Position numbers and translations under genes: made by a program. Shown in pieces: positions 9,101-33,726 of a stretch of DNA of 64,000 bases (position 1 is the stretch's first letter; every line of letters starts with the position of its first letter). Origin of the DNA: an uncultured Chitinophaga sp. (GTDB lineage Bacteria; Planctomycetota; Planctomycetia; Planctomycetales; Planctomycetaceae); contig CAZFDW010000001.1 of NCBI GenBank assembly GCA_964517865.1, positions 82 through 64,081 on the forward strand, in the 5' to 3' direction. A model generated the notes under the pieces. That model saw nothing but the letters and a program-made list of their open reading frames with translations, ran no database searches and was not told where the DNA came from.

Positions 9101-12100
9101 CGCGCTGGAGAATTGTCCGGTGGAGTGGGAATTCGCTTTCGGAGCTCCAGCAGCAAGCCACGGCTTCAGCAGTGAATCCGACATTTGCATTTGAGGCTGC
9201 CATCAACTCCTGTTACGACGTGAAACAGCGATATCGCCTTGCAATCGTGGCCGAGAATGCAGAAACGCTGAGCACAAAGCTTACGCTTGCCGCAAAGCAG
9301 CTGGCAAACTCAGGTGCTCAGGCCGTGCTGGCTGAGAAGGGGATTTTTGTCGGCGAAATCCCGGAAGTGAAGCCGCTGGTGGCTTTCCTGTTTCCGGGTC
9401 AGGGGTCTCAGTATGAAGGCATGCTGAAGTCACTGACGGATGAGTGTCCGGCAGCGGCAGCAACGTTGCGGGAAATCGACAGCATCCTGGCGCGACTTCA
9501 GTTGCCATCGTTCGCTGATTTGGCATGGAATGTGAGCAATGAACTGGGCGACGATGTCTGGAAAACACAGCTTTCGCTGCTGATCGCGGATACGATTGTC
9601 TATTCCGCTGTAATTTCTGCAGGAATACGCGCTGATCGTGTAGCAGGGCACAGCTTTGGCGAACTCGCCGCATTGGTTGCCGCTGGCAGCTGGACGTTTG
9701 AAGACGCACTTATTGCCACGAGTGGTCGCTGCGCTGCGATCAACGCCTGCAGAAATGCCAACGGTCTCCTCGTCTCGACTAACGCCGGAGCGTCAATCGC
9801 AGAGAACATCTGCAGCGAAAACTCGGGGCAGGTGTCAGTTTCTCACTTCAACGCGCCGGAGCAAACCGTCATCGGCGGTGAGGCGTCCGCGATTCAGCAG
9901 GTCGCGGAAGCACTGAAGGCACAGGGCTTCCTTGCGAAGATTCTCAACGTTCCGGCAGCATTCCACACGCCGTTGATGGAAGAAGTCAAAATCCCGTTTG
10001 GGCGATTTCTGCAGGACATTCCGCTGAGTCCGCCATCGATCCCGCTGTTGAGCAGCGTGACAAATCGCTACGTGGCAGATCCTGTGGACATTCGGGATAA
10101 CCTTGTCCTGCAAATGACCAGACCGGTCAACTATGTGGACCTCGCGACAAGATTGGCAGATGAAGGAATTGCCGCAATGGTCGAAGTCGGCCCGCGTCAG
10201 GTGCTGACCGGGCTGCATCGCCAGATTCTGAATGGCCGCACAATTGCGATTGTCGGCTGCGATCATCCCAAACGAAATGGAATGGAGCAACTGCTCTACG
10301 TCAGAGTCTGTCTGGAAGTTATTGGAGCCACTGATGTGTGGCCTGAAAAAACTCTTCCACAAATATTCGCCAACGCCGCACCTGCGATTGAGCTGCCTTT
10401 GAATGATCAGGCGGCAATGGGACAGACAGAGCCAGTCTCGGTGAACATTGATCGAAGCAATCCGGAGACAAGCCCTGCTGCGAGCGACAGGCAGATCGTT
10501 GATCACTTTGCACCGTCAGCAATGACGATGACCGGAACTTCTTTTGAGATGGGCCAACAACACGGTGTAGCCTATGCAAAATCGATTCGAACGGTGCTGC
10601 GTCGCTGTGCGGATCTTGCCGGATCGGCGTGGGATGAACTCGCCAGGATTGACGACGCTGTCGCTCAGGCGGAACAGTACTTTGGCGCATCAGGACTGGA
10701 GGAAATTCGCGGAATTGCTGACGGTGCGGGCGTTGCCGTTGGCGGCCTCATTGCACTCAACCTGAGGTTGTATCTCAACGCTTGTGCCGGAGGACTGCAT
10801 TTCGCTGTGTCCACTCAGGCGAATCCCGCTGGTGAAATGCTGCATGCGATGAATGAAGATCTGGCACGTGGCCTGAAGTTGAAAGATTGTCTTGTACGCA
10901 GCATTCAACTCCGGCGTCCTGTTACCGGAATTGCTCACATGACATTCGGTATCGCAGGACAAGTTGGAACTCTCAGCGGCATCAATGCGCATGGACTTGC
11001 TGTCAGCACGGCATCATTGGTGGATGTCGCACCGGAAAATATTCAGACGTCCGGACTACTCATTACCGTCGTCATCAGAAACATCCTTGAGCAGACAGCC
11101 GATCTGGATTCTGCTGTGGCCCTGCTGCGATCATCACGGCTCACCGGCGCCTGGACGTTGTGTCTCAGCCATCTGGCAACAGATCGAGTGTGTTTTGTCG
11201 AGTATGATGGCCAGGGAATGCGTGTTCAGCCACAATTGCAGCGGGCCATGGCTGCAAACCATCAGCAGTTAATGAACCACACCCGTCAATCATTTACGGA
11301 AAATGCACCTGCTCATTCAAGCAATCGATTGAATCGACTCCGGGAATTGCTGGACGCCACCACAGCGGTCGGAATGACTGTGGATAAAGCAAAGACAGTC
11401 CTGCGAGATCGCTTTGATCAGTCAGCGCCAAGAGAGGCCGAGTTACCAGGCCTGCATACCATTCAGCGGATCGATACGCAGATCAGCCTCGTGATGCAGC
11501 CTGCCAAGGCAGCTGTGTGGGTGACTGGTGGGCCGACTTCCAACGGCTTCCAGAATCAATTCACAAGGATCAGTCTGCAGAATCTGCTGCTTCAGTCTCC
11601 TGCTGAACCATTTGTTGTGCATGCACCATCAACACCCTCAGGAAAGAATCGTGCAGGTGTGAACAGTGAAATCCAACAAAAACAATTGTCGGAGGACTTT
11701 GCAAATGCAGCGGATCCTGTCCTGCCAGACGGAACAGTCGGTGTCTGCAGCCGATTTGTGATGCGAATGGTTCGGCAACCACTGGCGGCGGGCGAAAATA
11801 AGTCATTGGGGCCAGTCGGCAATGTCATCATTCTTGGACACAACAGGGCTGGTCAGGCATTGCATGCCAAACTCACTTCGCAGGGAGTCACAGCGTGTCT
11901 GCTGCCAGTGACTGAAGATCCGAGTGTCACAATCGCAGCCCTCGAAAATCTCTGGAAATCCGCCCCTGCTCCACATTTGTTCCTGATGACCGCCATGGAT
12001 GAACAGGCACAGACAGCGCTTGAGTCCGAAGTTTGGCGATCCCGTACGTCTCAGGGCGTAATGCTGCCGTATCTGGTTTGCCAGAGATGGTTTCAACTGA

Positions 12101-14211
12101 TGTCAGGAGCACGCCTTCTGAGTCAGGGATCATTGATTGCAGCCACATCATTGGGGGGTGACTTTGGATTCTCGGGCAACATTCGCGGGGTCGAAGGTGG
12201 TGCATTGACAGGGTTGGTCAAGGGCGTGCATCTGGAACTGGAGATGGGCCACCACGAAACACAATTTCATGCCAGAATTGTGGACAGTGCGAACTCCACA
12301 TCGCCGGAGGAACTCGCCCGATACCTTTGTCGGGAACTTGCCGTGCGTGATGACGAAATCGAAGTCGGCTACATGAATGGAATGCGGTATGTGGTGCGGC
12401 CGGTGGTTGAAACTGTCGGAAAATTAACGTCGAGGAAAATCTCTCCAGGTGCAAACGTCCTCATTACCGGCGGGGCTCGAGGAATCACGGCCGTTGTGGC
12501 GCGGGAACTTGGATTGCAGTTTGGCGCAAGACTGCAGTTGATCGGGTCATCACCGATTCCCGAAATTCCGGATGCGTTCCGTAACTCCTCCGAAGAACTG
12601 CGGCGCGAACTGAAAGCGATTGTCATGAAGGAGGCGCTGGCAGACCGCAGGAAGCCAATCGAGGCATGGGAACACTACGAGAAGGCGCTGGAACTTGACC
12701 GAACTCTCCGCGATTTCTCCGATGCCGGTATTCACGCCACATATCACGCCTGTGATATCAGCGATCGAGCCGCACTGTCGTGTCTGCTGGAGACCATCCG
12801 ATCCACTGACGGTCCGATCCAGGGCGTCATTCACGGCGCCGGTTTTGAACGGGCTACTCGATTCGACAAAAAGAAACCTGAACTTGTGGCGCGCACCGTA
12901 GCGGTTAAAGTTGATGGTGCCGCCAATCTGATGGCACTGACTCTCAATGATCCGGTGGAATTCTTTGCGGCATTCGGGTCTGTGAGTGGACGATTTGGCG
13001 GAGTCGGACAGACAGACTATTGTGTCGCCAATGATATGCTGGCCAAGTTAGTTGACTGGTATCGTCAGACACGTCCGGGAACAGTTGCCTCCACATTTCA
13101 TTGGCATGCGTGGGACGATGTGGGTATGGCTATGCGGCCTGAATCGAAGCATATCCGCAAAATGCATGACATTCGGTTCATGCCATCGCGTGAAGGAACA
13201 ATGCATCTGGTCGGAGAACTGCGAGCCGGCTTGCCGGAAGGTGAGATTCTGGTTACAGAACTGAAAACTTGTCGGGATCGATATACCCGCATCGCGCCAG
13301 CAACCGAAGGAGCGACATCAACGACGCCGGCAAAACTTCCGTTGATTGATGCGGTCATCTCCGAAATCCCTGGGAAAGAATTACTTGCGGAGTTGATACT
13401 CGATCCGTGCCAGGATGTATTCCTGAAACAGCACTTGTTCAAAGGCAAGCCATTGCTGCCTGTTGTGGTCGCAATCGAAGCACTTGTCGAAGCCGCAATT
13501 GAGCTCACTGGAAAATATGGCAAAGTTGCAGCTCTGCACAACATTGAGATTGTCAACGGTCTGCGATTCACCACAGACGAACCACAAACTGCACACGTGC
13601 GGGCAGTTGCTGATGGCGATCAGGTTCGCTGCGAATTGATGTGTGACTTCCGCAATCGTCGTGGCATTGTCCTTCAGCCCAACCGCCCCTATCTGCGAGC
13701 TGATGTTGTCTTTATGGAGACGCCCCCCAAACTGGCTTCCTGTACGACTCCATCGGTCTCAGAATGGCATGATGTCTGGTATCCGGAAGAAGACGTCGTC
13801 ATTTACCATGGACCGGTGTTCCGGAATCTGCGTCAGATCACCGTGGATGAACGCAGTGATGGCTGGGCGCGGCTGGTGGCTCCCTCACCGGACAACGTTG
13901 CCGGGGTTCGAGGCGGGGCGGGCTGGTGCGTGCCGTCAGCACTTCTGGATGGCTGCTTTTTCGCGTGTGGTGCTTTCCTTTGGTTTCTGCTCGAAGGTGT
14001 GGTTGCGATCCCGGCCGGGATCGGTGAAATCCGATTCGGTCGCCAGGCACGGGTTGGGGAGCAATGTCTGGCCCATATCCGATTTCGCGATCGCAAAGAT
14101 GACCAGGGGATATTTGACGTTGATTTGTATGGCGAAGACGGAGAGGCCATCCTGCAGGTAGAAGGATATCGAAACATGATTGTGGCGCAGGCGATTTCAA
14201 ATGTCCGTTGA
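6103..14211 (+). CDS. Iterative type I PKS / PUFA-synthase-like megasynthase: KS - CLF - AT - peptidase C45/AAT-like domain - KR - PS-type DH (no ACP)
   Basis: 2702-aa ORF with a GAGGAAA SD before the ATG. Domain motifs are listed in the sub-features. The stop overlaps the PPTase start. Confidence 0.9.
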   Translation: MSRFSEKPVAIIGMGCRLPGADNVDEFWQLLIEGRSALGELPPDRMDRELQYAPQKGIRTRSYSCLGGVAQEQQFSQIDCPVSQSLIDQSHSAHITLCTVAASACRDAGLNPYALPNRNVGVYVGHTPPSAHIGQVVYARMIAQTAEYLREIRELDQLPPGEKDAIIREIVHSVRKDYKAGDPLTRMRSYANHGPGLISQAFGLDGPSIAFDAACASSFRALGHGIRALQRGAVDMALIGGASYVHGDTLVVFSQAQTLSAVGSMPFDEKAAGLVAAGGYVVLALKTLERAMADGDSIQAVICGLGVSSDGKGKSLWAPRQEGQIEAISRAYGHGIEFRDLQYLEMHATSTQVGDATELAAMAKSAHGQFPPHTKIPIGSVKANIGHTLETAGIASLLKTVLAMKHGKIPPQINVQQLNSTVNWEELPFFVPTQALEWKRPAPNIPRMAAVNAFGIGGLNVHIAVREHLPVATSTHPVSSPPVKQLIAATDDNLSDEGALAIVGMGAIYPGARTIDHLWDVFREGRDQKSEVAPQRWKKNLAYDAASHELWKVPTATGGFINDYEYDWKRHKVPPKQIASADPLQFMLLDAADQALKDSGYDAKPFDRNRTGVIVGIVFGGEFADQLQAGLRLTDFQKRLSEALQNRGVATEKINQICAEYENILLEHMPALIDETGSFTASTLASRITKTFNLMGGAVALDAGDCSSLSAIECCADVLLAGDCDMMICASGQRAMGIPTFEGLKQHELLSVGEPHAPFDSRATGSVPGEGVGAVILKRLADAQRDGDRIHGIIRGLGVARSDSRREALRNALSRGLHSAGLTPQDIAFIEAGSSGVPDRDRDEILAIADVYGAESRPEPLPIGSVAGQMGNIGGGSGMASLIKAVSQLNHAEMSASVGLESPISELGDNAKIVRPCNAPSRIPPVNVNGRMFAGITSYANHHVAYHLIVEGATRVPMPAPSVKRPSLMARPAAQPCELRSPAVSPASPRVSSAWQPESSRWRIVRWSGNSLSELQQQATASAVNPTFAFEAAINSCYDVKQRYRLAIVAENAETLSTKLTLAAKQLANSGAQAVLAEKGIFVGEIPEVKPLVAFLFPGQGSQYEGMLKSLTDECPAAAATLREIDSILARLQLPSFADLAWNVSNELGDDVWKTQLSLLIADTIVYSAVISAGIRADRVAGHSFGELAALVAAGSWTFEDALIATSGRCAAINACRNANGLLVSTNAGASIAENICSENSGQVSVSHFNAPEQTVIGGEASAIQQVAEALKAQGFLAKILNVPAAFHTPLMEEVKIPFGRFLQDIPLSPPSIPLLSSVTNRYVADPVDIRDNLVLQMTRPVNYVDLATRLADEGIAAMVEVGPRQVLTGLHRQILNGRTIAIVGCDHPKRNGMEQLLYVRVCLEVIGATDVWPEKTLPQIFANAAPAIELPLNDQAAMGQTEPVSVNIDRSNPETSPAASDRQIVDHFAPSAMTMTGTSFEMGQQHGVAYAKSIRTVLRRCADLAGSAWDELARIDDAVAQAEQYFGASGLEEIRGIADGAGVAVGGLIALNLRLYLNACAGGLHFAVSTQANPAGEMLHAMNEDLARGLKLKDCLVRSIQLRRPVTGIAHMTFGIAGQVGTLSGINAHGLAVSTASLVDVAPENIQTSGLLITVVIRNILEQTADLDSAVALLRSSRLTGAWTLCLSHLATDRVCFVEYDGQGMRVQPQLQRAMAANHQQLMNHTRQSFTENAPAHSSNRLNRLRELLDATTAVGMTVDKAKTVLRDRFDQSAPREAELPGLHTIQRIDTQISLVMQPAKAAVWVTGGPTSNGFQNQFTRISLQNLLLQSPAEPFVVHAPSTPSGKNRAGVNSEIQQKQLSEDFANAADPVLPDGTVGVCSRFVMRMVRQPLAAGENKSLGPVGNVIILGHNRAGQALHAKLTSQGVTACLLPVTEDPSVTIAALENLWKSAPAPHLFLMTAMDEQAQTALESEVWRSRTSQGVMLPYLVCQRWFQLMSGARLLSQGSLIAATSLGGDFGFSGNIRGVEGGALTGLVKGVHLELEMGHHETQFHARIVDSANSTSPEELARYLCRELAVRDDEIEVGYMNGMRYVVRPVVETVGKLTSRKISPGANVLITGGARGITAVVARELGLQFGARLQLIGSSPIPEIPDAFRNSSEELRRELKAIVMKEALADRRKPIEAWEHYEKALELDRTLRDFSDAGIHATYHACDISDRAALSCLLETIRSTDGPIQGVIHGAGFERATRFDKKKPELVARTVAVKVDGAANLMALTLNDPVEFFAAFGSVSGRFGGVGQTDYCVANDMLAKLVDWYRQTRPGTVASTFHWHAWDDVGMAMRPESKHIRKMHDIRFMPSREGTMHLVGELRAGLPEGEILVTELKTCRDRYTRIAPATEGATSTTPAKLPLIDAVISEIPGKELLAELILDPCQDVFLKQHLFKGKPLLPVVVAIEALVEAAIELTGKYGKVAALHNIEIVNGLRFTTDEPQTAHVRAVADGDQVRCELMCDFRNRRGIVLQPNRPYLRADVVFMETPPKLASCTTPSVSEWHDVWYPEEDVVIYHGPVFRNLRQITVDERSDGWARLVAPSPDNVAGVRGGAGWCVPSALLDGCFFACGAFLWFLLEGVVAIPAGIGEIRFGRQARVGEQCLAHIRFRDRKDDQGIFDVDLYGEDGEAILQVEGYRNMIVAQAISNVR
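6124..7500 (+). other. Ketosynthase (KS) domain, catalytically intact
   Basis: VAIIGMGCRLPGA; active-site FDAACASSF (Cys codon 6745-6747); EMHATSTQVGD; GSVKANIGHTLETAG. Confidence 0.9.
7600..8958 (+). other. Chain-length-factor-like (KS-beta) domain
   Basis: Thiolase-fold paralog of the KS (LAIVGMGAIYPGA...). The Cys position reads ALDAGDCSS (Asp at the aligned Cys position). Both catalytic His motifs are replaced (IEAGSSGVPDRD; GSVAGQMGNIGGGSG). Confidence 0.8.
9379..10215 (+). other. Acyltransferase (malonyl-CoA:ACP type) domain
   Basis: FLFPGQGSQYEGM; GHSFGE (Ser codon 9652-9654); AFHTPLM. Confidence 0.9.
10500..11560 (+). other. Peptidase C45 / acyl-CoA:6-aminopenicillanic-acid acyltransferase (AAT)-like Ntn-hydrolase-fold domain embedded in the PKS
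   Basis: MTGTSFEMGQQHGVAYA...EEIRGIADGAGV...LNACAGGLHFAV...MLHAMNEDL...GIAGQVGTLSGINAHGLAVSTASL...VVIRNILEQTADLDSAVALL follows the C45/AAT family pattern. The candidate nucleophile Cys codon is at 10783-10785. Confidence 0.7.
11800..13150 (+). other. Ketoreductase (KR) domain including the N-terminal structural subdomain, catalytically intact
   Basis: VLITGGARGITAVVA Rossmann motif (about 12456-12490); GVIHGAGF; AVKVDGA (Lys); GSVSGRFGGVGQTDYCVAN (Tyr codon 13018-13020). Confidence 0.85.
13340..14208 (+). other. PKS-type (PS-DH, double hot-dog) dehydratase domain
   Basis: H-x3-G-x4-P motif HLFKGKPLLP (His codon 13432-13434); downstream ALLDGCFF motif. Confidence 0.8.
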
Positions 14212-14926
14212 GCAAACTGCCGTTCGATACGCATCATTCGAAGCGTTAAGGGCAACAGGTATCGACAATGCGTTGCCATGGCTGCGCGGTACAAATGAGC
14301 GTGCGGAACTGGAACGTCTGACTGCGGAATCACGCCAGCAGAACTGGAAGTGGGGCCGCATTCTCAGCAGGCAGCTTTTGCGGGATCACGGCGTGGTTCG
14401 CGAGTCTTCGAGCGAGCAGTTGGAAATCCTGTCCATCAACGCATTCGGGCAGAATGATCGCCCTGCTGTCTACATTGATGGAGTGCTGCAGGCCGTGTCG
14501 CTCTCAATTTCTCATTCTGACCGTGGCCTTCTGGTCGCGCTTAGCGCTGCGACGAGAGTTGGTGTTGATCTGGTAGACCTTGAACAGGAGCCGTTTGGTT
14601 CACTTTGGGTCTGGATGACGAATGCAGAGCGAGCCTGGATGAACCGAAACGATTTGCGGCAACAGGCCACGGTCTGGGCCGTGAAGGAGGCTGTGTATAA
14701 GGCACTGAACGAGGGTGAGTCATTCTCGCCGCTCAGTGTTGCGGTGGTGCGGGAAGTACACGGTCGATACTCGTGCTTTTACAAAGACAGGGATATGAGG
14801 TCGATTTGTCAAATACACATCCGTGAATTGGACAGCCACCTTGCCGCCGTCGTTGAATACGGAATTCCATTAGACAACGCAGATCGAGAGATGCGTCAGA
14901 AACTCGATGTCGATACTGCTGAGTGA
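14201..14926 (+). CDS. 4'-phosphopantetheinyl transferase (Sfp-type)
   Basis: RVGVDLVDLE and WAVKEAVYKAL motifs. ATG 14201 overlaps the PKS stop (14209-14211) by 11 nt. The ORF track begins at an in-frame TTG at 14180. Confidence 0.8.
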   Translation: MSVEQTAVRYASFEALRATGIDNALPWLRGTNERAELERLTAESRQQNWKWGRILSRQLLRDHGVVRESSSEQLEILSINAFGQNDRPAVYIDGVLQAVSLSISHSDRGLLVALSAATRVGVDLVDLEQEPFGSLWVWMTNAERAWMNRNDLRQQATVWAVKEAVYKALNEGESFSPLSVAVVREVHGRYSCFYKDRDMRSICQIHIRELDSHLAAVVEYGIPLDNADREMRQKLDVDTAE

Positions 14927-14989
14927 ACGGCGAATTGATGTGGACGCCGTTGTTTCCTGTCCTCAAACAAAGATTTGATAAAAACGCCG

Positions 14990-15940
14990 ATGAGTTTGCT
15001 GGAAGTCAATCGATTAAAGAAGTCCTTTGGCACGCATCTGGCGGTCGATGAAGTCAGCTTCACTGTCGGAAATGGCGAAATTCTCGGACTGCTGGGGCCG
15101 AACGGTGCCGGAAAGTCCACGACGATCATGATGCTGGCCGGACTCATTGAACCCGATTCAGGCAACATTGTGCTGGACGGTCACACACTGAGTCATTCGG
15201 ATCGGAAGTCGCGTCAGCAAATGGGAATTGTTCCTCAGGATCTGGCCATCTACCCCAATCTGACGGCCCGTGAAAACCTTCGTTTTTTTGGCGGACTCTA
15301 TGGACTCACCGGCTCTGACCTGCGAAGCCGCATTACCGAAGTGTTGTCACAAACAGGCCTGGCAGATCGGCAGAACGACCTGACGTGTGAATATTCCGGC
15401 GGCATGAAACGCAGGTTGAATTTCGGCGTCGCATTGTTACACCGTCCCCGACTGTTGATTCTGGATGAGCCAACGGTCGGTGTCGATCCGCAATCACGGG
15501 CGCATCTGCTGGATTGTGTGAGGCAACTTGCCAGCGGGGGAATGTCCGTCATCTACTGCAGCCACTACATGGAAGAAGTTCAGGAATTATGTGATCGCGT
15601 TGCCATTGTGGATCGTGGTCAGTTGCTGGCATGTGATCGCATTGATCGACTGCTTGGGGAACTGGGCTCGACGCTGCGGCTACATCTGGTTGATGCCTCC
15701 GGAGAACTGCGTGCCAGCCTGACAGGCATTCCGGGAGTCACTTTTCAGCAGTGCAAGGATCGCATAATTGCATCAATTGCGAGACGCAATCCGGATGAGA
15801 ATCAAACTCTGCTTAACACGCTGACAGCTGCATTGCAGGCTGTTAGGGACGCTGGCGGGCAACTGACGACTGTTGAGTCGGACGAACCAGACCTTGAACG
15901 ACTCTTCCTGCAAATGACCGGCACACGGCTGCGAGAATAA
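14990..15940 (+). CDS. ABC transporter ATP-binding protein (ABC-2/DrrA-like)
   Basis: Walker A GPNGAGKST, signature YSGGMKRRL, Walker B LLILDEPT. ATG at 14990; an in-frame TTG at 14975 is also possible. Confidence 0.9.
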   Translation: MSLLEVNRLKKSFGTHLAVDEVSFTVGNGEILGLLGPNGAGKSTTIMMLAGLIEPDSGNIVLDGHTLSHSDRKSRQQMGIVPQDLAIYPNLTARENLRFFGGLYGLTGSDLRSRITEVLSQTGLADRQNDLTCEYSGGMKRRLNFGVALLHRPRLLILDEPTVGVDPQSRAHLLDCVRQLASGGMSVIYCSHYMEEVQELCDRVAIVDRGQLLACDRIDRLLGELGSTLRLHLVDASGELRASLTGIPGVTFQQCKDRIIASIARRNPDENQTLLNTLTAALQAVRDAGGQLTTVESDEPDLERLFLQMTGTRLRE

Positions 15941-15942
15941 CG

Positions 15943-17226
15943 ATGCGATTCTGGAACATTGTACAAAAGGATGTCATCCTGCTGGTTCGTGACAGCCGCG
16001 CGCTGTTCGTCCTGGTCATATTTCCGCTCGTGTTCATCACGATCATCGGCTTGACGACCGGTAAGCTGCTGGGGTGGAAGAATGAGAATCAAATTTTGAA
16101 AATCGGTGTCATCGACAGGACGAATTACGCCGCATTGGAGGACGAAACCGATCGTCACCGGGCGCGCAACATGGCCATGAAGATGGTAAACGGAGTCCGC
16201 CGTGGAAAAAACCAGCGCGGCGAAATGCTCGATTCCAACTGTAAATTTCAGGAGTCACTGGAGAACGGCAGTCTGGATGCAGTGCTGGAGATCGGACCGG
16301 AGTTCTACGGTATTTATCAGACGCTGGAACCTGAAGATGCATCTTCCAGTGGTTCCGGAGTTCTGACGAAGGGACTTTTCGGCCTGGGAATGACATTACA
16401 TTCAAATCTGCCAGAGACTTCCGGCACACGTTCGATCATTGAACAGTTATTATTTGATCAGGCAATCAAAACCGTGTTGCCTTATGTGTTGTGTGACAAG
16501 TTTCACACGTCGAACGTGATGGTGAATGTCCAGATTCAGCGAAAACTGAATTGCCAGCAGTTGCGAACGGAAGTCGTAGAACTCCTTCCTCCCTCGGAAG
16601 AAACTGCTGATTCCTCCGGTGGCGACGACATGCTGTACACCGTTCTGATTCCTTCCTACACCGTGATGTTTGTGTTTTTCCTGATCAACATCATGGCACG
16701 TTCGTTCTTACAGGAGCGCGACCTCGGCACACTGCGCAGACTGCGATTTGCACCGATTTCCGATCCCGGACTTGTCGCCGGAAAAACTCTCCCCTTCCTG
16801 TTTATTTCCCTTGTCCAGACTGGACTGTTGTTTGTGAGCGGGAAGTTGCTTTTTGGAATGATCTGGGGGCCTGCGCCCTGGATGCTGATTCCTGTTATCT
16901 GTGCCACATCGCTGTCTGCAACTTCTCTGGGACTGCTTGTCGCTACGATAGTTCGCAGTGACTCGCAGGTCTCGGCCTACGCGAACATCATTGTTATTTC
17001 GATGGCAGGGTTTAGTGGTTGCTTCATGCCGCGTGTCTGGTTACCCGGGCCCATGCAGACCGGAAGTTTGATTTTTCCGCATGCGTGGGCGCTGATGGCG
17101 TATGAACAGTTGCTGGTCAAAAGAGTTCCTGATCTTGGTCTTGTATGGCAGTACTGCGGCGTACTTTTGCTCTTCTCTGCTGTCTGCTTTGTGGCCGGGT
17201 GCTGGCGGTTTCGGCATAATGACTAA
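15943..17226 (+). CDS. ABC-2 type transporter permease
   Basis: Starts 2 nt after the ATPase stop. One N-terminal TM, a large loop and a C-terminal cluster of TM helices are typical of ABC-2 permeases. Confidence 0.8.
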   Translation: MRFWNIVQKDVILLVRDSRALFVLVIFPLVFITIIGLTTGKLLGWKNENQILKIGVIDRTNYAALEDETDRHRARNMAMKMVNGVRRGKNQRGEMLDSNCKFQESLENGSLDAVLEIGPEFYGIYQTLEPEDASSSGSGVLTKGLFGLGMTLHSNLPETSGTRSIIEQLLFDQAIKTVLPYVLCDKFHTSNVMVNVQIQRKLNCQQLRTEVVELLPPSEETADSSGGDDMLYTVLIPSYTVMFVFFLINIMARSFLQERDLGTLRRLRFAPISDPGLVAGKTLPFLFISLVQTGLLFVSGKLLFGMIWGPAPWMLIPVICATSLSATSLGLLVATIVRSDSQVSAYANIIVISMAGFSGCFMPRVWLPGPMQTGSLIFPHAWALMAYEQLLVKRVPDLGLVWQYCGVLLLFSAVCFVAGCWRFRHND

Positions 17227-17294
17227 CCTCGACTCTGAATGCTCCCCGGACAGCCAGCAGCAGTGTGATGCCGCCTGACGATAAGCCGTTAAAA

Positions 17295-20200
17295 CTACTG
17301 GCGAGGCGGGTTCAAGGTGGTAGCATGGAATCCCTGTGTCCAAAGAATGGCGGTCCCATCTTCTGCCAGAAGCCAGATATCCCAGGTGAGTCGGCGACCA
17401 TTGCGGCCGCGAAAAATGACTCTGGCCAGACATTTCTCACCGGCGGCCGGCAATCGACCAAAGTCAATCTGGTCGATCACATGTGGCAACTGTCGCGTTC
17501 CCAGGTTGTGCGTGGCGAACAGGTCGCACAAAAACAGACAGCCATCCAGCAACGCAGCCGGGGTGTGCCAGCGTGATCCGGGCCGTGAACCTCCCAATTC
17601 AGAAACTGGCGGGGCGATCATCCGCCCCCAGGAACCGTGCGCGTCGTGGTGGACAGATTTCAGAGTTCTCAGTTGTGGACCGTAAAACACAGTGCCACTT
17701 TCCGCAGCTCCCATGTCATGCCAGTCATTCGGATACGGTACCGCTGTCCAGGCATTCGACTCTGGCGGAGTACCGATATCCGGGGGCAAAATCTGCTGTG
17801 GATCATCCGCCATATTCAGTATGCAGGTTTGATACAAACGGAATGGATCGATCAGCAGACCCTGCTTCTCAAAGAAGTCTCCCGTCAGCTGACACGTCAA
17901 TTCCTGTTGAGTGCCGGTAAGTAGTATCCGCGCATGATGAAGGCGAGGGCTGGCCATGCGAAATCCGTTCTGGATTTGCAGATTGCGGAGCCGGCTGACG
18001 AACCGGCCGCCGCTCCAGATGAACGCAGCCTGCACACAGGTTTCAATGCCAACGACGGCTGGCAACAGCGGAACTCCGTCGTTCAGATGTCCATTGAGAA
18101 ACGGATCGGTATCCGGGGAAAATCGAATTTCAGCAATGCCCTGCTGTCCGATTCCCGAAAAAATATGATCGATTAATGGGGATTCGGAGATCAGATCCGT
18201 CAACTTCTCTCGCTGATGACATTCGATTTCGGAGGGCATCAGCCTGTTCAGAGCATCGCTGGAACTGATGTCCGGCCAGATCAGAATCTCCGTGTCGGCG
18301 GAGTCGGTGCTCAATTCTGCAATGACATGTGCAGTCGCTTCGTCCATCGCTGTCAAATGTTCACGCGCGCCAGCATCGGTATCCTGATTCACTTCACTGG
18401 TGATGACATCATTTTCAGCCCATGCCGGGCACAGGATTGTGACGGCACGGAATCCGTCCCGTCGTTCTGCCGCCACGCGCTGCAAAATCAGAGTCAGCAT
18501 TTCGTCGCCGAGCGCGAGTGCAGTCTGCAGTGCCGAACCAAACCTTCCCGCCGCCGAGGAAGTACAGATCAAATGGGAAAGTGGATCGCTGGCGGTCAGT
18601 TTCAGGAGGGCATCGGTGCATTCAACCCTGAGTCGCAACTGGTCTGCGACGTTCAGGGGATCAGTCTTCAAAAACTGTCCCGCCAGTGTCAGTTCCGCCC
18701 CGTGAAGAATGCCCTCAATTTTAACGTCCTGCCGACGTATCGCTGTCAGTACTTTTTCCAGTTGAGTCCTGTCACAGAGATCACACTGGTGGCAGGTATA
18801 CTGAATCCCGGCGTTGGTCAGAGCGACGAGTGTCCTGTCCAGAGGCAGATCTGCATCAATCAAGTGCAGTCGTAACCCATGCTGTCGCCCCAACTGCAGA
18901 GCCAGAGATGCGATATGACTACGACACACGCCCGTGACAATCCATGTTGTGCCACGACGAATGTTCCGCTGCGGAAGCTCTGAGACCGGCTGGAAAGTCG
19001 GTCTGGTCGTATATCTTTTCCCACGAACCGATGCCGTCTCGATGATGGTGGTATCGGTTGCCAGTTCGCGGCAAACGGCGGCAGCGATCATTTTCGGCGG
19101 TTCATTTTCTGGTGCATCGATCACTCGGATTCGCAGCACACCTTCGGTTTCGCGGCTAAGTGACTTCAACAACCCCGCCATTCCACCACGATACGGTGAC
19201 GCAAACAGACCACGGCATCCCCCGTCTCCCCCGAATAAACTGACTGCTGCAAGAGACGCCCGGTGGATGAGTTTTGCGTCACAAACATGCTGATACCATC
19301 GCTGGCAGATGCAAAATCCTGTGACGGCTGCATCAGAGGGTCTGCTCCCCGGTGAACTCAGGTCACTGTTCTCGCTGTTGCCTTCATCGCAGCCGGTCAT
19401 CAGGAACAAATGTGGCGTTGGAGCATGTGCCCAGATGTCGTCTAACTCCTGCAGTAAACTATCGGTGCTGGCGAAGTCTGTCAGCTGATGGACGGAAATC
19501 TGCAGGCTCTCCAATTTTTCTTTCAGCGCTGCAGCTGCCGCGTTATGGCCAAGGATCAGTGCCGCACCGGAAAACACACTGACCGGTGAAACAGACGTCG
19601 GTGATGTTGCTTCCACGGTGCGAAAGACGTACCTCCGCATCGTCCGCGATTGTGAAGAATTCGTCGATGCATCGTGCGGTTTAACAGCCGAGTGTGGCCC
19701 AACGGCATCTGCAGATTCAGCTGCAGGCTGCAGCATGGATGCTGATGGAGTCCGCATCGTCCATTCAATCAACTGTTCCAGGCACGCGAAGTCTGTTGGA
19801 GCATTTTCCTTTCGTGTGGGCAGATCGGGGAATTCCCGGAACATTAAGTCCAAAAGGTATTGCCGGGCAGCTTTATTGAGGCCGAGATCACCTCTGAGGT
19901 CTGAGTTCAGCAGGATCAGGTCTGATGGATAGCCGGTCAGATCGATCACCGCCTGGACCAACCGCTGGACCAGCCGACGCCGATCCGGAGACTTCAACGT
20001 CGGCCCAACGCTGCTGGCTGCGTTTTCTGCTGGAGCCGCCAGATCCATGGTCATGGCGGGTGCTGCCACAGGAACGATGCTCTGGTCAGAGTCGCTCCGT
20101 GGTGGTGTGCCTGGCGATGTGTGAGTCTGTGACTTTAATGGTATCGACAATTCCCAGGCAATGTCAGCTGGCAATACAGTTCTGATTGTATCGCCTGCAC

Positions 20201-22439
20201 TCTGAGCGTCACTCAATCGCTTCAGGATGATGGCGGCCGCGCCTGTCCCGAGAGCGCATCCTGCCGGGCCTTTTCCGGCCGCCAGCATCTGCTGGAAGGA
20301 CACATCTGTCATGCGTTGTCCCACCGCACAGAGGACCATGTCGCAGGTTCCGCTGTGCAGGAGGTCAACGGCGGTGAGCAATGCTGCCTGTGCGGAGTAT
20401 GCACCGCCCTCCACTGTCAGTGCACCACCCATCAGATCCAGATGCTTTGCGATCATCGATGACAGAGTACTGCTGGAAAGACTCCCTGTGACATCCAGAC
20501 TGGCTGGTTTCCGGGTCAGCAATGTGTTCCTGAAGGAATCTATGACTTCGGCAATTTCAACGTCAGCCACGTTTTCGCGTTGCAGCACACTGGCAATCGC
20601 TTCGCGGATCTCGGGCATTCGAACACCGACAAGGGCGTCGCACGAAAAATCACTCGTGAAGTACGTGCCCACAACCGTGCCGACACGCGAACGATCAAAA
20701 TCCCGTGTGGAATAGTTGCCGTCTGCAAGTGCATCAACAGCAGCATCCAGCAGCATATATTGTAATGGATTGGCATTGGCAATCTGGCGAGGAGGAATGC
20801 GGTGTTTCCTCCAGTCGAAGACATAATCGTCCGCAGTGACACTGGATGCTGTCGGCTGGCGACGTGCATTTGATACAGCAACACCGGCGAGCTGAAGAAA
20901 CTCCCGCACCAGGCTGGAGTTGGTGAGCGGCTGTCCAATTCCAATGACAGCAATCTGGTCATGAGCGAGCCTGTTTTCGGGCAGCGGAAGTGAAATCACA
21001 CTGGAGTCTGAAAAACTATTCGTAATCGGCGGAGATTCCTGATCGACGACCATATGAACATTGAGGCCGCCGATTCCAAAGGCGTCAATACCGGCTCTGC
21101 GTGGATGCCCGTCCCCGGGGGCAGGCCAGGGCAATGGTTCCGTGGTGACTCGAAATGGGATCTGATCCCAGTGAATTTGCTGATTGAGCGGCCTGCCATG
21201 CATCGCCGGAGGAATCGTTTCAAATTGCATGGCCAGCAATGTCTTGATCAGACCCACCATTCCGGCGGCTTCCAGAGTGTGTCCCACATTGGCCTTTGCG
21301 CTGCCGATGGGAATCCCTGGTGAAACGATTTCCGCTAGTGTTTCGGTCAGTGATGCGATTTCAGTGGCGTCGCCAAGCTGAGTGGAAGTTGCATGGGCTT
21401 CGATGTACTGCAGACGGGTGGGATCAATTCCGGATGAATAAGCTCTTCGAATCGCTGCCACCTGTCCTTCCTGCCGTGGCGCCCAGAAGGTTTTACCGCG
21501 TCCGTCCGATGAGACTCCCATAGATCTTATGATGCCCAGGATCTGGTCTCCGTCCAGCCGAGCGCGGTGAAGTGTCTTGATCATCACCGCTGCATATCCA
21601 TCCGAGGGTACCATCCCGTCGGCGTCGGATGAAAACGGCGAAGAATGAGTAGCGCTCATCGTTTGTGTGGGTGAGAGCAACACCATCTCCCACCAGTTAC
21701 GATACGAAAAGGCGCCGACAACAGCGGCATCAGTTCTTCCCCGGTGGAGTGACATTGCGGCCAGATGAATTGCGACAAACGAAGATGCACACGCTGCGTC
21801 CAACGCGATCGCGGGGCCGGAAAGATTCAGTGCGTGCTGGATGAGTTTCGCGGCGGCGGCCGGTGTGACCACATTCACCCCAGACTCTTTCCACGACGTT
21901 GTCGTCGTCCGAATCTGCTGAATCAATCCGGCGGCGGCCTTTTCCATAACCCGAGGATCAATCGGCTTTTGTGAACCTGCTTCCCGAAGCAGTTGTGACA
22001 GTTCTTCGGCATGACTGTGGTAAACAAATTCCGCTTCCAGGTTACTGCCGGTGCAGTTGCCTACAAACACTGCGGTGTCGGGTAAAGACCTGAGTCCCGG
22101 CCCGTAACCGGCATGCTGCACTGCAGCGCATGCCACTTCACACATTGTCAGATGTGTGGGATCGGCACGGAGCGCGTCATCCGGCGAAACCGGGCAGGCT
22201 TTGTGATCCCGAGTGCTTGCGCGTACGGTTCCGGCGATTCGAGAATAAGATTTTTCTGCGGTTTCCCGGTCTTCGCTGTAATACAGCCGCTGGTTCAGGC
22301 GATCCGGTGGCAGAATTGAGATTCCATGCCGTCCTTCGACCAGCAACTTCCAGAAATCATCCAGGTTATCTGCACCGGCCAAGCGGCAGGCCATACCGAC
22401 AACAGCAAGGGGAGTTGTCCGAAAGTCATCAGCAGACAT
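17295..22439 (-). CDS. Second PUFA-synthase-like megasynthase, paralog of 6103-14211: KS - truncated CLF - Ser-less ACP-like - degenerate KR - PS-DH
   Basis: 1714-aa ORF with a GGGAGG SD upstream of ATG 22439. Shares collinear motifs with the first synthase (for example DWRKHRIPPRQIANANPLQYMLLDAA versus DWKRHKVPPKQIASADPLQFMLLDAA). Confidence 0.9.
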   Translation of the reverse strand: MSADDFRTTPLAVVGMACRLAGADNLDDFWKLLVEGRHGISILPPDRLNQRLYYSEDRETAEKSYSRIAGTVRASTRDHKACPVSPDDALRADPTHLTMCEVACAAVQHAGYGPGLRSLPDTAVFVGNCTGSNLEAEFVYHSHAEELSQLLREAGSQKPIDPRVMEKAAAGLIQQIRTTTTSWKESGVNVVTPAAAAKLIQHALNLSGPAIALDAACASSFVAIHLAAMSLHRGRTDAAVVGAFSYRNWWEMVLLSPTQTMSATHSSPFSSDADGMVPSDGYAAVMIKTLHRARLDGDQILGIIRSMGVSSDGRGKTFWAPRQEGQVAAIRRAYSSGIDPTRLQYIEAHATSTQLGDATEIASLTETLAEIVSPGIPIGSAKANVGHTLEAAGMVGLIKTLLAMQFETIPPAMHGRPLNQQIHWDQIPFRVTTEPLPWPAPGDGHPRRAGIDAFGIGGLNVHMVVDQESPPITNSFSDSSVISLPLPENRLAHDQIAVIGIGQPLTNSSLVREFLQLAGVAVSNARRQPTASSVTADDYVFDWRKHRIPPRQIANANPLQYMLLDAAVDALADGNYSTRDFDRSRVGTVVGTYFTSDFSCDALVGVRMPEIREAIASVLQRENVADVEIAEVIDSFRNTLLTRKPASLDVTGSLSSSTLSSMIAKHLDLMGGALTVEGGAYSAQAALLTAVDLLHSGTCDMVLCAVGQRMTDVSFQQMLAAGKGPAGCALGTGAAAIILKRLSDAQSAGDTIRTVLPADIAWELSIPLKSQTHTSPGTPPRSDSDQSIVPVAAPAMTMDLAAPAENAASSVGPTLKSPDRRRLVQRLVQAVIDLTGYPSDLILLNSDLRGDLGLNKAARQYLLDLMFREFPDLPTRKENAPTDFACLEQLIEWTMRTPSASMLQPAAESADAVGPHSAVKPHDASTNSSQSRTMRRYVFRTVEATSPTSVSPVSVFSGAALILGHNAAAAALKEKLESLQISVHQLTDFASTDSLLQELDDIWAHAPTPHLFLMTGCDEGNSENSDLSSPGSRPSDAAVTGFCICQRWYQHVCDAKLIHRASLAAVSLFGGDGGCRGLFASPYRGGMAGLLKSLSRETEGVLRIRVIDAPENEPPKMIAAAVCRELATDTTIIETASVRGKRYTTRPTFQPVSELPQRNIRRGTTWIVTGVCRSHIASLALQLGRQHGLRLHLIDADLPLDRTLVALTNAGIQYTCHQCDLCDRTQLEKVLTAIRRQDVKIEGILHGAELTLAGQFLKTDPLNVADQLRLRVECTDALLKLTASDPLSHLICTSSAAGRFGSALQTALALGDEMLTLILQRVAAERRDGFRAVTILCPAWAENDVITSEVNQDTDAGAREHLTAMDEATAHVIAELSTDSADTEILIWPDISSSDALNRLMPSEIECHQREKLTDLISESPLIDHIFSGIGQQGIAEIRFSPDTDPFLNGHLNDGVPLLPAVVGIETCVQAAFIWSGGRFVSRLRNLQIQNGFRMASPRLHHARILLTGTQQELTCQLTGDFFEKQGLLIDPFRLYQTCILNMADDPQQILPPDIGTPPESNAWTAVPYPNDWHDMGAAESGTVFYGPQLRTLKSVHHDAHGSWGRMIAPPVSELGGSRPGSRWHTPAALLDGCLFLCDLFATHNLGTRQLPHVIDQIDFGRLPAAGEKCLARVIFRGRNGRRLTWDIWLLAEDGTAILWTQGFHATTLNPPRQ
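17298..18180 (-). other. PS-type dehydratase domain
   Basis: HLNDGVPLLP (H-x3-G-x4-P) and ALLDGCLF motifs are conserved. Confidence 0.8.
18410..19575 (-). other. KR-like domain with degenerate cofactor and catalytic motifs
   Basis: The Rossmann motif reads TWIVTGVCRSHIA (versus ITGGARGIT). The Lys motif reads RLRVECT (versus AVKVDGA). The Tyr motif reads GSALQTALALGDEML (versus GVGQTDYCVANDML). Confidence 0.7.
19762..19990 (-). other. ACP-like domain lacking the phosphopantetheine attachment serine
   Basis: LVQAVIDLTGYPSDLILLNSDLRGDLGLNKAARQYLL aligns with [33 protein letters not shown]. The D-S dipeptide is replaced by N-K (codons 19877-19872). Confidence 0.7.
20175..20962 (-). other. Truncated CLF-like domain (~260 aa versus ~450 aa in the paralog)
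   Basis: IAVIGIGQ...LMGGALTVEGGAYSAQAAL (no Cys). It ends after ...AAAIILKRLSDAQSAGDTIRTVL. The C-terminal half of the thiolase fold is absent. Confidence 0.7.
21040..22412 (-). other. KS domain, catalytically intact
   Basis: LAVVGMACRLAGA; LDAACASSF (Cys codon 21789-21791); IEAHATSTQLGD; GSAKANVGHTLEAAG. Confidence 0.9.
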
Positions 22440-22477
22440 GTTATCGACGCCTCCCGGCGGACGCTCACACAGGATCG

Positions 22478-23242
22478 TTACACATGGATTGCGGATCCGC
22501 CATCCACGGTCAGCGTTTCTCCCTGCACAAGATCACTCAAACGGCTGGCCAGAAACAGCACAACATCGGCAACGTCGTCCGGCATCAGTTCTCGTTCTCC
22601 GACCATGCTCTTGTTCTTTCGTTCGGCGAACATGACGCCGGAATACGGGATTCGACGAGTGGAGTCTGTTTCAACAAGTCCGGCTTTAACAACGTTGACG
22701 TTAATTCCCTTGTCTCCAACTTCCAGAGTCAGATGTCGCGCGATACTCTCGAGCGCTGCTTTGGATCCGCCAATCAGACCGTACATCGGCAACGCCATAT
22801 GAGATCCATGGCTGGAAATTGCAATCACCTTGGCGCGCCCGACACTTCGCTCAAGCAGTGGCAATGCTTCTCGCACCAAAAACACGAGTGACAATACATT
22901 GATGTTCATTGTGGCATGGAAATGCTTCGTGTTTGACGCCAGCAGTGGACGAAAGCCACCCGTGGCAGCGTTGCTGACGATAATTTCCAGCTGTCCGATT
23001 TCCTCCTTAATGAAATCGATAAGCGAAATGACGTCTACCTCTTCCCCGACATCAGCCTTAACCACATAGGCTCTCCGGCCCATGGCTGTAATCTGATCAG
23101 CCACTTCCATGGCTGCGGCACGCGACGTGACATAATTAATGATCACATCAGCGCCTGCCTCTGCCAGTCGCAATGCACATGCTTTTCCAATCCCGCGGGA
23201 GCTTCCCGTAACCAGTGCGACTTTTCCAGCCAAGTTGATCAT
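22478..23242 (-). CDS. fabL: Enoyl-[acyl-carrier-protein] reductase, FabL type (SDR)
   Basis: KVALVTGSSRGIGKACALRLAEAGADVIINY...VKADVG...NAATGGFRP...TMNIN...ISSHGS...YGLIGGSKAALE...TVDGG is collinear with Bacillus FabL as I remember it. It lies 38 nt upstream of the second synthase. Confidence 0.75.
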   Translation of the reverse strand: MINLAGKVALVTGSSRGIGKACALRLAEAGADVIINYVTSRAAAMEVADQITAMGRRAYVVKADVGEEVDVISLIDFIKEEIGQLEIIVSNAATGGFRPLLASNTKHFHATMNINVLSLVFLVREALPLLERSVGRAKVIAISSHGSHMALPMYGLIGGSKAALESIARHLTLEVGDKGINVNVVKAGLVETDSTRRIPYSGVMFAERKNKSMVGERELMPDDVADVVLFLASRLSDLVQGETLTVDGGSAIHV

Positions 23243-23709
23243 TCTACAACCTTTGAATTACGACCAGCCGATCAGTCGGTAATACCGTGCATCCATCGCA
23301 GTACCGCCCCAAAGTCCAGTCAGCCGATCGCGTGTTTCTGGAATCGTCTTTGCGGCCACGTCGCTGCATCAGAAAGCATACTTCGTGGTGTTCCTCCTGA
23401 CCCTCATCTGTTTCCGAATCTCACCATAGATTTGTGGCTGTGCCAAGCGGAAACTTGATGAAATCGTCAAAGGCAGCACGTTCGTAAGAACAGGCGTCAT
23501 AAACTGAATGACCGGAACCAGATTCAGCAGTCGAGAGGCATGGTACGCAGAGTTCAGGCGTTTCATGCATCGACTTCGCCTGAGACATGGAAGTCTGTTT
23601 TCAGGAATTCGCTGCTCGGGCACCTACGCCAGAGTTTACAAATGTGCCAGCCACGAACACCCTGTGCGATTCCGCACAAGTTCGATGCCCAGCACAACTT
23701 TGACGCGAA

Positions 23710-24108
23710 TTATCCGCAGATTTCCAGCCAGGCAGTGTTCAGCGTCGTTGGTGATTTACAGTCGGCCGATCTGAACAACACACTCAGTTGATTGAACTCT
23801 GCAATTCGGTCCGTGACTTCGAATGCAAATTCCGCATCCTGACCGGCCGGACATTCCGCAATGTCCACCCCGTTCATCCGTAAGACATCGGGGCATTTGC
23901 TTGCCTGCAACACAATCCGGAGCGTGGTGGTGTCGTCGATGCCTGTCGGGCAATGAAAACCACGATTCAGCATGACACCAGATTCCGGTTGTGATTCTGG
24001 CAGCGTAAACGGCAACTGACAGCGGATCAGCTCTCCGACAGGCTGTCCGTCGTCGCCAATGAATTGCGATTCCCATGGCCCAGCCAGGCGAATTCTGTGA
24101 TTCTTCAT
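23710..24108 (-). CDS. Small hypothetical protein, possibly with a galactose-binding-domain-like beta-sandwich
   Basis: 132-aa ORF. The pattern LAGPWESQF...NRGF...LRIVLQAS...VLRMNGVDI...FAFEVTDRI...NQLSVLF resembles GH2 N-terminal sugar-binding domains. Weak. Confidence 0.4.
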   Translation of the reverse strand: MKNHRIRLAGPWESQFIGDDGQPVGELIRCQLPFTLPESQPESGVMLNRGFHCPTGIDDTTTLRIVLQASKCPDVLRMNGVDIAECPAGQDAEFAFEVTDRIAEFNQLSVLFRSADCKSPTTLNTAWLEICG

Positions 24109-24136
24109 AACGCGGTATCTGTCATGTCCAGTTCGG

Positions 24137-33531: not shown

Positions 33532-33726
33532 CAAAAATCTCCGTGAGCGGATTGATGCGGGTACGAAGTCGGTGCGGATAGTGTAAACTCTGTGCAGGAT
33601 TTTTTCTCTGGTCGGCTTGTTCCTGAACATCACTCTTTCATTTCGGTGGTGGGCCGGCGCTCGCAAAGCTCGCTGGTCCCACCCTACGACATCGTATCGT
33701 TCGCCCCACAGAATGACAGGTCTTTC

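Follow-up and report, generated by a model that had tools for sequence, protein, structure and literature searches.

What is a megasynthase for once several of its domains have lost their catalytic residues? The question is raised by a gene in a 64,000-nucleotide stretch of contig CAZFDW010000001.1 (assembly GCA_964517865.1), referred to below as the window. The gene, here called synthase 2, lies at 17295..22439 on the minus strand and encodes a protein of 1714 aa, in which a ketosynthase (KS) and a dehydratase (DH) with intact catalytic residues flank a truncated chain-length factor (CLF), a segment resembling an acyl carrier protein (pseudo-ACP) and a ketoreductase (KR) devoid of its catalytic residues (pseudo-KR). 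A first-pass annotation, made from the sequence alone, had described it as a partly decayed paralog of the larger synthase 1 of the same window and offered two roles, a specialised KS/DH module working with acyl carrier proteins (ACPs) provided in trans or a pseudo-enzyme serving as the structural partner of synthase 1. Our follow-up favours the first role, to which the conservation of KS and DH (26–31% invariant columns) points, and disfavours a pure pseudo-enzyme. With moderate confidence, we regard synthase 2 as the second subunit, active in condensation and dehydration, of an iterative lipid synthase that is made up of two synthases, resembles the polyunsaturated fatty acid (PUFA) synthases and is encoded by uncultured freshwater Planctomycetaceae.

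Domain anatomy of synthase 2

The frame of synthase 2 starts with an ATG preceded, 10 nt upstream, by GGGAGG, and the gene was assigned from its translation, Pfam/NCBIfam searches, paralogy with synthase 1 and orthologs of 94–37% identity. The scan of positions 17000–24800 for promoters and terminators returned counts at the chance level. Synthase 1 (6103..14211, plus strand, 2702 aa) comprises KS, CLF, acyltransferase (AT), C45, KR and DH domains, all with canonical motifs according to Pfam/NCBIfam and the motif table. In BLASTP, the two proteins shared 39% identity over aa 6–756 of synthase 2 (aa 4–794 of synthase 1) and 32% from aa 931 into the C-terminal region (synthase 1 from aa 1883 onward, with the alignment seen to about aa 1535). 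The AT and C45 were skipped in this alignment, and Pfam/NCBIfam placed both in synthase 1 only. The collinearity of the two synthases without AT and C45, as originally annotated, was thus recovered by both methods: the fold order KS, CLF, KR and DH is common to them, whereas synthase 1 has in addition AT, C45, a full CLF and a canonical KR (TGGARGI, Lys, Tyr) but no relic of an ACP.

The two domains at the ends of synthase 2 are complete (the domain coordinates given here all refer to the minus strand). The KS (aa 1–470; 21030..22439; PF00109 with E 5e-61, PF02801 with E 6e-30) consists of a full KS at aa 10–414 and a C-terminal extension, and the motifs DAAC(217)ASS, EAH(349)ATST and NVGH(387) supply the Cys217/His349/His387 triad typical of ketosynthases of type I polyketide synthases (PKS) and fatty acid synthases (FAS). 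The DH of PKS type (aa 1419–1714; 17298..18185) has both hallmarks of its class, the HxxxGxxxxP motif in H(1451)LNDGVPLLP and the Asp of the second hotdog in LLD(1632)G, and is modelled as a double hotdog. Its Pfam matches, spanning aa 1422–1511 and 1582–1710, are weak, with 32.9 bits for PF14765 (above the cut-off of 23.7) and 22.4 bits for PF21089 (below the cut-off of 27). The KS triad and the DH motif had been read correctly in the first-pass annotation.

The region between the KS and the DH contains three altered parts. The CLF (about aa 495–757; 20169..20957), aligned to synthase 1 aa 501–794, is limited to its N-terminal thiolase-fold half; its end, after about 260 aa as annotated, coincides with that of the first of the two Pfam halves of a KS, and it has Tyr at the active-site position. 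The pseudo-ACP (aa 816–900; 19740..19994) was delimited by motif alignment and is predicted to form a four-helix bundle. Its GDLGLN(855)K(856)AARQ aligned with DLGIDSIKKAQ of the ACPs encoded in the cluster, so the N-K noticed earlier in place of D-S is N855-K856 at the attachment site; PF00550 gave no match to this segment in Pfam at E<=0.01. Hence, the segment keeps the fold of an ACP and lacks the conserved Ser of helix II. At the matching place synthase 1 has no ACP and many synthase-1-type homologs still have PF00550, which identifies the pseudo-ACP as the relic of an ancestral in-line ACP.

The third altered part is the KR. Its structural subdomain (aa 936–1155; 18975..19634) aligned to synthase 1 aa 1883–2110 and bears a conserved, clade-specific patch composed of P1110, N1112-E-P1114, M1117 ... 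E1134, A1136 and R1139-G-K1141. The catalytic subdomain (aa 1156–1345; 18405..18974) gave a partial PF08659 match at aa 1203–1341. According to the motif table it has TGVCRSH for TGGARGI, Arg1271 for the catalytic Lys and Leu1308 for the catalytic Tyr, exactly as the manual alignments had indicated, and it therefore has neither the TGGxGxxG-type NADPH-binding motif nor the Lys/Ser/Tyr set of PKS ketoreductases.

Conservation of the losses and selection on the gene

A homology search provided seven full-length orthologs of synthase 2 (P0002–P0007 and P0015; 80–37% identity), which together with synthase 2 are called here the core clade (n=8). The wider family was represented by the best 120 homologs, 16 without and 104 with an AT, so that it counted 121 members with synthase 2. 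The genome scan added four loci, all from metagenome-assembled genomes (MAGs), including matches to synthase 2 at 94% (L011) and 97% (L012). The latter, a 6 kb contig (JAYUVA010000501.1) that matches the last 867 aa of synthase 2 at 97% identity, belongs to a MAG labelled Candidatus Kuenenia (anammox); the label is probably a binning error, since every other relative is Planctomycetaceae. Core-clade representatives are rare: a library comprising 1.84 billion representative proteins contained just a handful.

The ortholog comparison proposed in the first-pass annotation as a check gave a clear result. The KR glycine motif, Lys and Tyr were lost in all seven orthologs, and the residues replacing them differed from lineage to lineage. 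The C-terminal half of the CLF was missing in 8/8 core-clade members, and the ACP-like motif had no conserved Ser across the clade, the attachment site reading NK, NQ, TQ, NS, SE, DR, TA or AI. The KS Cys/His/His triad and the DH His were invariant in 121/121 family members (17 AT-less, 104 AT-containing), and each of the 18 proteins compared in the motif table had the DH Asp. All 104 AT-containing homologs kept the KR Lys and Tyr together with the KS triad and the DH His. Judged from these alignments, the losses of synthase 2 are not strain-specific; being common to all orthologs they are old and represent a stable design of the whole clade rather than a broken gene.

Neighbour-joining trees with bootstrap were built separately on the KS, the DH and the CLF half. 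Sixteen of the 17 AT-less proteins, synthase 2 among them, formed one clade (bootstrap 100/100 on KS, 91/100 on DH, 65/100 on the CLF half), and P0093 fell outside it. The eight proteins with the truncated CLF grouped together in 100/100 KS replicates. Within the AT-less clade the KR is intact in P0008, P0013 and P0018, has Ser for Tyr in P0009–P0011, is dead in the core eight and in P0032 and is absent from P0044, and the C-terminal half of the CLF is eroded to a varying degree. The KRs of P0009, P0010 and P0011 (L004/L005 10001-15832) are canonical (SGGARGI/TGGARGI, Lys, Ser) except for the replaced Tyr and look like an intermediate stage in KR inactivation. The repeated and independent losses argue that the KR and the C-terminal half of the CLF are redundant in the AT-less subunit. 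For the KR, this fits redundancy with the KR of synthase 1, which is canonical in 104/104 AT-containing homologs.

Synthase 2 might nevertheless be a gene in decay, carrying a recent strain-specific lesion or persisting as a pseudogene that is still open by chance, since several of its domains are visibly degenerate and erosion continues in the clade. The frame, however, is intact, at 1561–1750 codons, in eight lineages of 37–94% identity, the losses, common to all orthologs, are old, the core clade is recovered in every bootstrap replicate and the ratio of non-synonymous to synonymous substitution rates (dN/dS) is about 0.24 (0.24–0.26) for the whole gene. The comparison with the orthologs refutes decay of either kind, and we regard it as extremely improbable.

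The dN/dS ratios per domain, the second check suggested at the outset, were estimated by the pairwise Nei–Gojobori method against the ortholog of locus L001 (80% identical), because L011 (94% aa identity) offered too few substitutions per domain, e.g., 14 non-synonymous vs. 8 synonymous in the DH. The values were 0.16 for the KS, 0.20 for the half-CLF and 0.14 for the DH, with 31%, 29% and 26% of columns invariant among the eight core-clade proteins, respectively. The pseudo-ACP had 0.32 (7% invariant), the KR structural subdomain 0.32 (10.5%) and the KR catalytic subdomain 0.26 (1.1%, i.e., 2/190 columns), and the linkers ranged from 0.31 to 0.77 (0–6%). In synthase 1 of the same genome pair, the active KR catalytic subdomain showed 0.13 and the structural subdomain 0.30. 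Thus, the dead KR is about two-fold relaxed (0.26 vs. 0.13), yet it does not evolve neutrally. The gene is under purifying selection throughout, strongest on KS, half-CLF and DH, which excludes a pseudogene, as the long open frame and the Shine–Dalgarno sequence had already suggested.

The description of synthase 2 as partly decayed therefore needed to be divided. It applies to the KR and the ACP, which are dead, the decay being ancient and clade-wide. It does not apply to the half-CLF: constrained as strongly as the KS, this half is, on the evidence of its conservation, a functional part that is neither debris nor decaying. Erosion of the KR, by the same kind of evidence, is still going on inside the clade. 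A helical insertion of about 50 aa that follows the second KR strand (at about aa 1197) is present in synthase 1, P0003, P0005, P0007, P0015 and P0008 and is gone from synthase 2, P0002, P0004, P0006 and also P0013, and most of the KR catalytic subdomain is deleted in P0006.

The same data bear on the pseudo-enzyme reading, according to which synthase 2 would do no more than scaffold or regulate synthase 1, e.g., as its partner in a heterodimer, and none of its active sites would turn over substrate. Three of its five recognisable domains are dead or truncated, the conserved surface patch of the KR structural subdomain could serve as an interaction interface and the gene shares a cluster with synthase 1 in most loci. 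What makes this reading unlikely in our view is that the KS triad and the DH His and Asp are invariant down to 37% identity while the catalytic residues of KR and ACP drifted in the very same proteins. A scaffold would not retain precisely the catalytic residues, nor would KS and DH be expected to show the lowest dN/dS in the protein; moreover, in L015 the gene is paired with a reductase gene (described below), and the 10 kb flanking the pair on both sides contain no synthase 1.

The active KS could also have a narrower task, loading a starter acyl group or passing chains between carriers without iterative elongation. Synthase 2 lacks an AT, the CLF paired with its KS is cut short and that KS belongs to a clade distinct from the synthase-1 KSs. 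Such a priming or transfer KS is nonetheless quite improbable: Cys and both His residues required for decarboxylative condensation are present, so the domain is not a KSQ-type decarboxylase, and an intact DH would presumably be purposeless in a pure loading module.

Predicted folds, the upstream reductase and the proposed role

AlphaFold models were obtained in two pieces, aa 1–763 and aa 800–1714. The first (KS with half-CLF) had a mean pLDDT of 90.7 and a pTM of 0.93, with pLDDT of about 87–97 in the half-CLF, and the second (pLDDT 87.8, pTM 0.88) showed a four-helix pseudo-ACP in which K856 takes the Ser position where helix II begins, a complete two-subdomain KR fold (Rossmann) and a double-hotdog DH; the confidence for the half-CLF and the KR may be inflated, as the input alignments held full-length CLFs and active KRs. 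The best PDB match of the first model was the KS-CLF of PfaC, 6RIW, with a TM score normalised to the query of 0.75 over 802 columns, compared with about 0.5 for KS-only structures. From this difference, the half-CLF is predicted to pack on the KS as the N-terminal half of a normal CLF does. Solved PKS ketoreductases matched the modelled KR with TM scores of 0.64–0.77 (normalised to the target, single-domain KR chains), the reduction-incompetent C2-type 3qp9 among them.

The retained folds raise the possibility that the dead domains acquired new functions, the pseudo-KR as a non-reducing enzyme (cf. the C2-type epimerases) or a binding domain, or the pseudo-ACP as a docking domain recruiting synthase 1 or the stand-alone protein with three ACPs (3xACP) encoded in the window. 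Both domains are modelled with confidence, their dN/dS of 0.26–0.32 lies below that of the linkers, the structure search returned 3qp9 and the D-L-x-L portion of the pseudo-ACP is invariant in the core clade. We nevertheless think it improbable, although the pseudo-ACP may conceivably have a docking role. Only 2 of the 190 KR catalytic columns are invariant, and the core clade shows no conserved substitute motif where the active site used to be; P0006 has lost most of the subdomain and P0044 all of it. A role as an epimerase-only KR of the C2 type fits poorly too: in spite of the resemblance to 3qp9, the pseudo-KR lacks the Tyr and has not a single conserved active-site residue, and an unbranched malonyl-derived chain would offer no alpha-substituent to epimerise.

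The gene directly upstream of synthase 2 was absent from the first-pass account. It encodes a FabL-like enoyl-ACP reductase of 254 aa (22478..23242, minus strand), lies 38 nt upstream of synthase 2 and probably forms one operon with it. The protein, a short-chain dehydrogenase/reductase (SDR), matched NCBIfam FabL (NF005975) best, with 255.8 bits, below the curated cut-off of 328, the next family scoring 170; the enoyl-reductase spacing Y-x6-K (PMYGLIGGSK) is conserved in its orthologs. Such a gene immediately precedes synthase 2 in 7 of the 11 distinct loci examined (the window, L002, L003, L004, L011, L015 and L016; 76–98% identity) and 4–5 kb away in L008 and L009 (70–74%). Its coordinates are 9084-9848 in L002, 9098-9859 in L003, 9054-9818 in L004, 9171-9932 in L015, 8623-9420 in L016 and 19191-19958 in L018. 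The conservation of the reductase exceeds that of synthase 2, e.g., 76% vs. 37% in L003, with synthase 2 ranging from 37% to 94% across the loci; no other protein of the system is conserved as highly as the reductase. The idea that this SDR replaces the dead KR was rejected. It is of the FabL type with Y-x6-K and not a FabG, and it accompanies the intact KR of L008 (P0018), the Tyr-less KR of L004 (P0010) and a cluster with a single synthase.

The single-synthase cluster, L018 of the cultured Thalassoroseus pseudoceratinae, contains one synthase-1-type gene with an in-line ACP, a release reductase and the FabL-like reductase (56% identity), with no synthase 2 within 10 kb. On the gene content of this cluster, the base system is one synthase with a FabL-type enoyl reductase (ER) and a release reductase, to which synthase 2 was added as a paralog in some lineages.

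Altogether, from the anatomy of synthase 2, its conservation and the analogy with PUFA synthases, we infer a catalytically active subunit that shares ACP, AT and KR with its partner and divides the labour with it. It would have arisen by an old duplication of a KS-CLF-AT-(C45)-ACP-KR-DH synthase and would then have shed what the partner supplies: AT and C45 were presumably deleted, the ACP lost its Ser, the KR its cofactor motif and catalytic residues, and the C-terminal half of the CLF was removed. The KS would pair in cis with the N-terminal half of the CLF, which would form the dimer interface, and the PKS-type DH would still work. In type II KS-CLF pairs, as in the actinorhodin KS-CLF structure, the residues gating chain length are situated on the N-terminal half of the CLF, at the dimer interface, which would explain the retention of exactly that half. 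The KS and the DH would act on acyl chains borne by the separate 3xACP protein; synthase 1 would provide malonyl loading through its AT and beta-keto reduction through its KR, and the FabL-like reductase would carry out enoyl reduction. The pseudo-ACP and the pseudo-KR may remain as folded spacers or a scaffold positioning KS and DH. The KS/CLF/DH set of synthase 2 could handle a subset of elongation cycles, defined by chain length or unsaturation state, different from that of synthase 1. In PUFA synthases, two KS domains are used differentially by chain length (PMC11962503).

Several points weigh against this proposal. Activity does not follow from the mere conservation of the catalytic residues, the suggested division of labour by chain length is drawn solely from the analogy, and the model confidence may be inflated as stated above. 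The FabL-like reductase, found also in the single-synthase cluster, is not specific to synthase 2, and its linkage is not universal, since P0008 and P0013, AT-less proteins with an intact KR, have no adjacent reductase. The synthase 2 gene was present in 21 metagenomic DNA runs (freshwater sediment, lake water), no RNA run was listed among the runs with its sequence, and the host is uncultured and represented by MAGs only.

A more specific idea, which we put forward tentatively, concerns the half-CLF. The core clade may have evolved a minimal KS partner, a lone N-terminal thiolase half that forms the KS-CLF interface and gates the acyl tunnel, the relic ACP and KR filling or bracing the exposed face. 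If so, the family would be a natural deletion series (full, eroded or half CLF; intact, Tyr-less, dead or no KR) showing which parts of a two-KS iterative synthase are dispensable, and the product programmed by the additional KS/half-CLF/DH set would be a distinct planctomycete lipid, perhaps with a very long chain.

The cluster contains several further genes. The stand-alone 3xACP protein (4443..5957, plus strand), with DLGIDSIKKAQ three times and three PF00550 stretches, matches the ACP region of PfaA and is likely the carrier for both synthases. A thioester/fatty-acyl reductase (NAD_binding_4; 2796..4358, plus strand; PF07993 with E 3e-42, TIGR01746), likely acting in chain release, occurs also in L006/L007 and L018. 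A phosphopantetheinyl transferase (PPTase; 14180..14926, plus strand; PF01648) adjoins synthase 1 in L001, L002, L003, L008 and L016 as well. A pair of ABC transporter genes, ATPase and ABC-2 permease (14975..17226, plus strand; PF00005, PF12698), is convergent with synthase 2 and is kept in L001, L011 and L016. A CTP-transferase-like gene lies at 1512-2342 on the minus strand. Among the large ORFs scanned at 25.6–55.9 kb of the window, no PfaD-type ER and no further lipid genes were found. Two DUF1501 genes (36799-38205 and 46231-47661, both minus strand) and a sulfatase gene (33592-35562, plus strand) are also present; we take such genes to be common in planctomycete genomes, which fits the taxonomic assignment from the MAG matches.

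Further observations concern the partners of synthase 2. The 3xACP protein begins with a short basic motif, FDAT-x-x-R(R/K)K, which in P0018 and P0032 occupies the place, between CLF and KR, of the pseudo-ACP of other AT-less synthases; the related DA-x3-R precedes the in-line ACP in the family consensus. The motif may act as a peptide for docking or recognition. In synthase 1, the CLF retains, around aa 700, a Cys at the KS active-site position (DAGDCSS), both His being missing; this Cys occurs in 24 of 104 synthase-1-type homologs, with Ala, Thr or another residue in the remainder. The C45-family autoproteolytic acyltransferase/hydrolase domain of synthase 1 (NF040521, 140 bits vs. the cut-off of 85; aa 1477–1802, about 10530-11510, plus strand) is inserted between AT and KR and is found in about 79 of the 104 homologs. 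In L003 (16041-24216) the ortholog of synthase 1 is split into KS-CLF-AT (1455 aa) and C45-KR-DH (1224 aa), and a separate C45-like gene stands alone close by (7222-8298). Genes of Rieske-type ring-hydroxylating oxygenases adjoin related clusters (L009 4113-5273; L016 6976-8091; L017 8105-9298; L018 18027-19160 and 25229-26356), where they may modify the lipid product; none is present in the cluster of the window.

Relation to known lipid and polyketide synthases

A full-text literature search returned no description of this cluster type or of a "pseudo-ACP" and no mention of a C45 domain inside a PKS, and the 2025 review of planctomycete metabolites does not mention the cluster type. In the text passages of Shulse & Allen 2011 (PMC3098273), which distinguishes 20 cluster types, no match to the architecture of the window was found; the Planctomycete types I and J differ, and a C45/peptidase domain is not mentioned there. 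The cluster, with its 3xACP protein, C45-containing synthase, FabL-type ER, thioester reductase and ABC exporter, represents an uncharacterised lipid pathway of abundant freshwater planctomycetes.

The closest functional parallel is PfaC (KS-CLF-DH-DH), which works with PfaA (KS-AT-ACPn-KR-DH) and the enoyl reductase PfaD. Like PfaC, synthase 2 is a second subunit without AT or carrier that combines a KS-CLF pair with a dehydratase, and it would likewise rely on the AT, the ACPs and the single KR of its partner and on a separate enoyl reductase. The two differ in several respects. Where PfaC has tandem FabA-type dehydratase domains, synthase 2 has one double hotdog of PKS type (PF21089/PF14765), no FabA match being obtained for it in Pfam. 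PfaC has a full CLF; in synthase 2 the KS together with the N-terminal half of the CLF superposes best on 6RIW (TM 0.75, normalised to the query), the C-terminal half is absent and a relic ACP and KR stand between CLF and DH. The ER of the window is a FabL-type SDR and not a flavoprotein like PfaD, and the partner, unlike PfaA, has its own CLF and a C45 domain. The ACPs of the cluster and both synthases match the PfaA family TIGR02813, but synthase 2 (307 bits) and synthase 1 (661 bits) remain far below its cut-off of 1010 bits. Being below the PfaA threshold and lacking FabA-type DHs, synthase 2 is, by its domain content, not a PUFA synthase proper.

Another likeness is to the heterocyst-glycolipid-type and other "secondary lipid" pfa-like synthases (Shulse & Allen 2011), which share with this cluster an iterative KS-CLF type I synthase, multiple ACPs, release by a thioester reductase, a PPTase and, probably, a long-chain lipid product. 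The pseudo-KR has counterparts in the reduction-incompetent KRs of modular PKSs (C-type/KR0, e.g., 3qp9) and in the pseudo-KR of animal FAS, where the KR fold serves a structural role without NADPH-binding and catalytic residues. In contrast to these, the catalytic subdomain of synthase 2 is nearly without conserved residues (1.1%) and is shortened or deleted in some lineages, and an epimerase role is implausible.

In the two-KS iterative synthases, i.e., PUFA synthases and their relatives, the programming that decides which KS and DH act in a given cycle is poorly understood. The synthase 2 family offers a second, independent two-KS example, in which the dispensable parts are already marked by evolution: strong selection maintains the KS, one CLF half and the DH, and decay has repeatedly struck the KR, the ACP and the remaining CLF half. 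A half-thiolase CLF that is conserved and, as it seems, stable would be an uncommon structure, and of use in engineering chain-length control. Synthase 2 can be placed among the known systems as a variant of the two-KS iterative lipid-synthase design, belonging to a cluster type for which we found no published description. Dead KRs as such are familiar; less usual are the half-CLF common to the whole clade and the naturally occurring series of domain losses.

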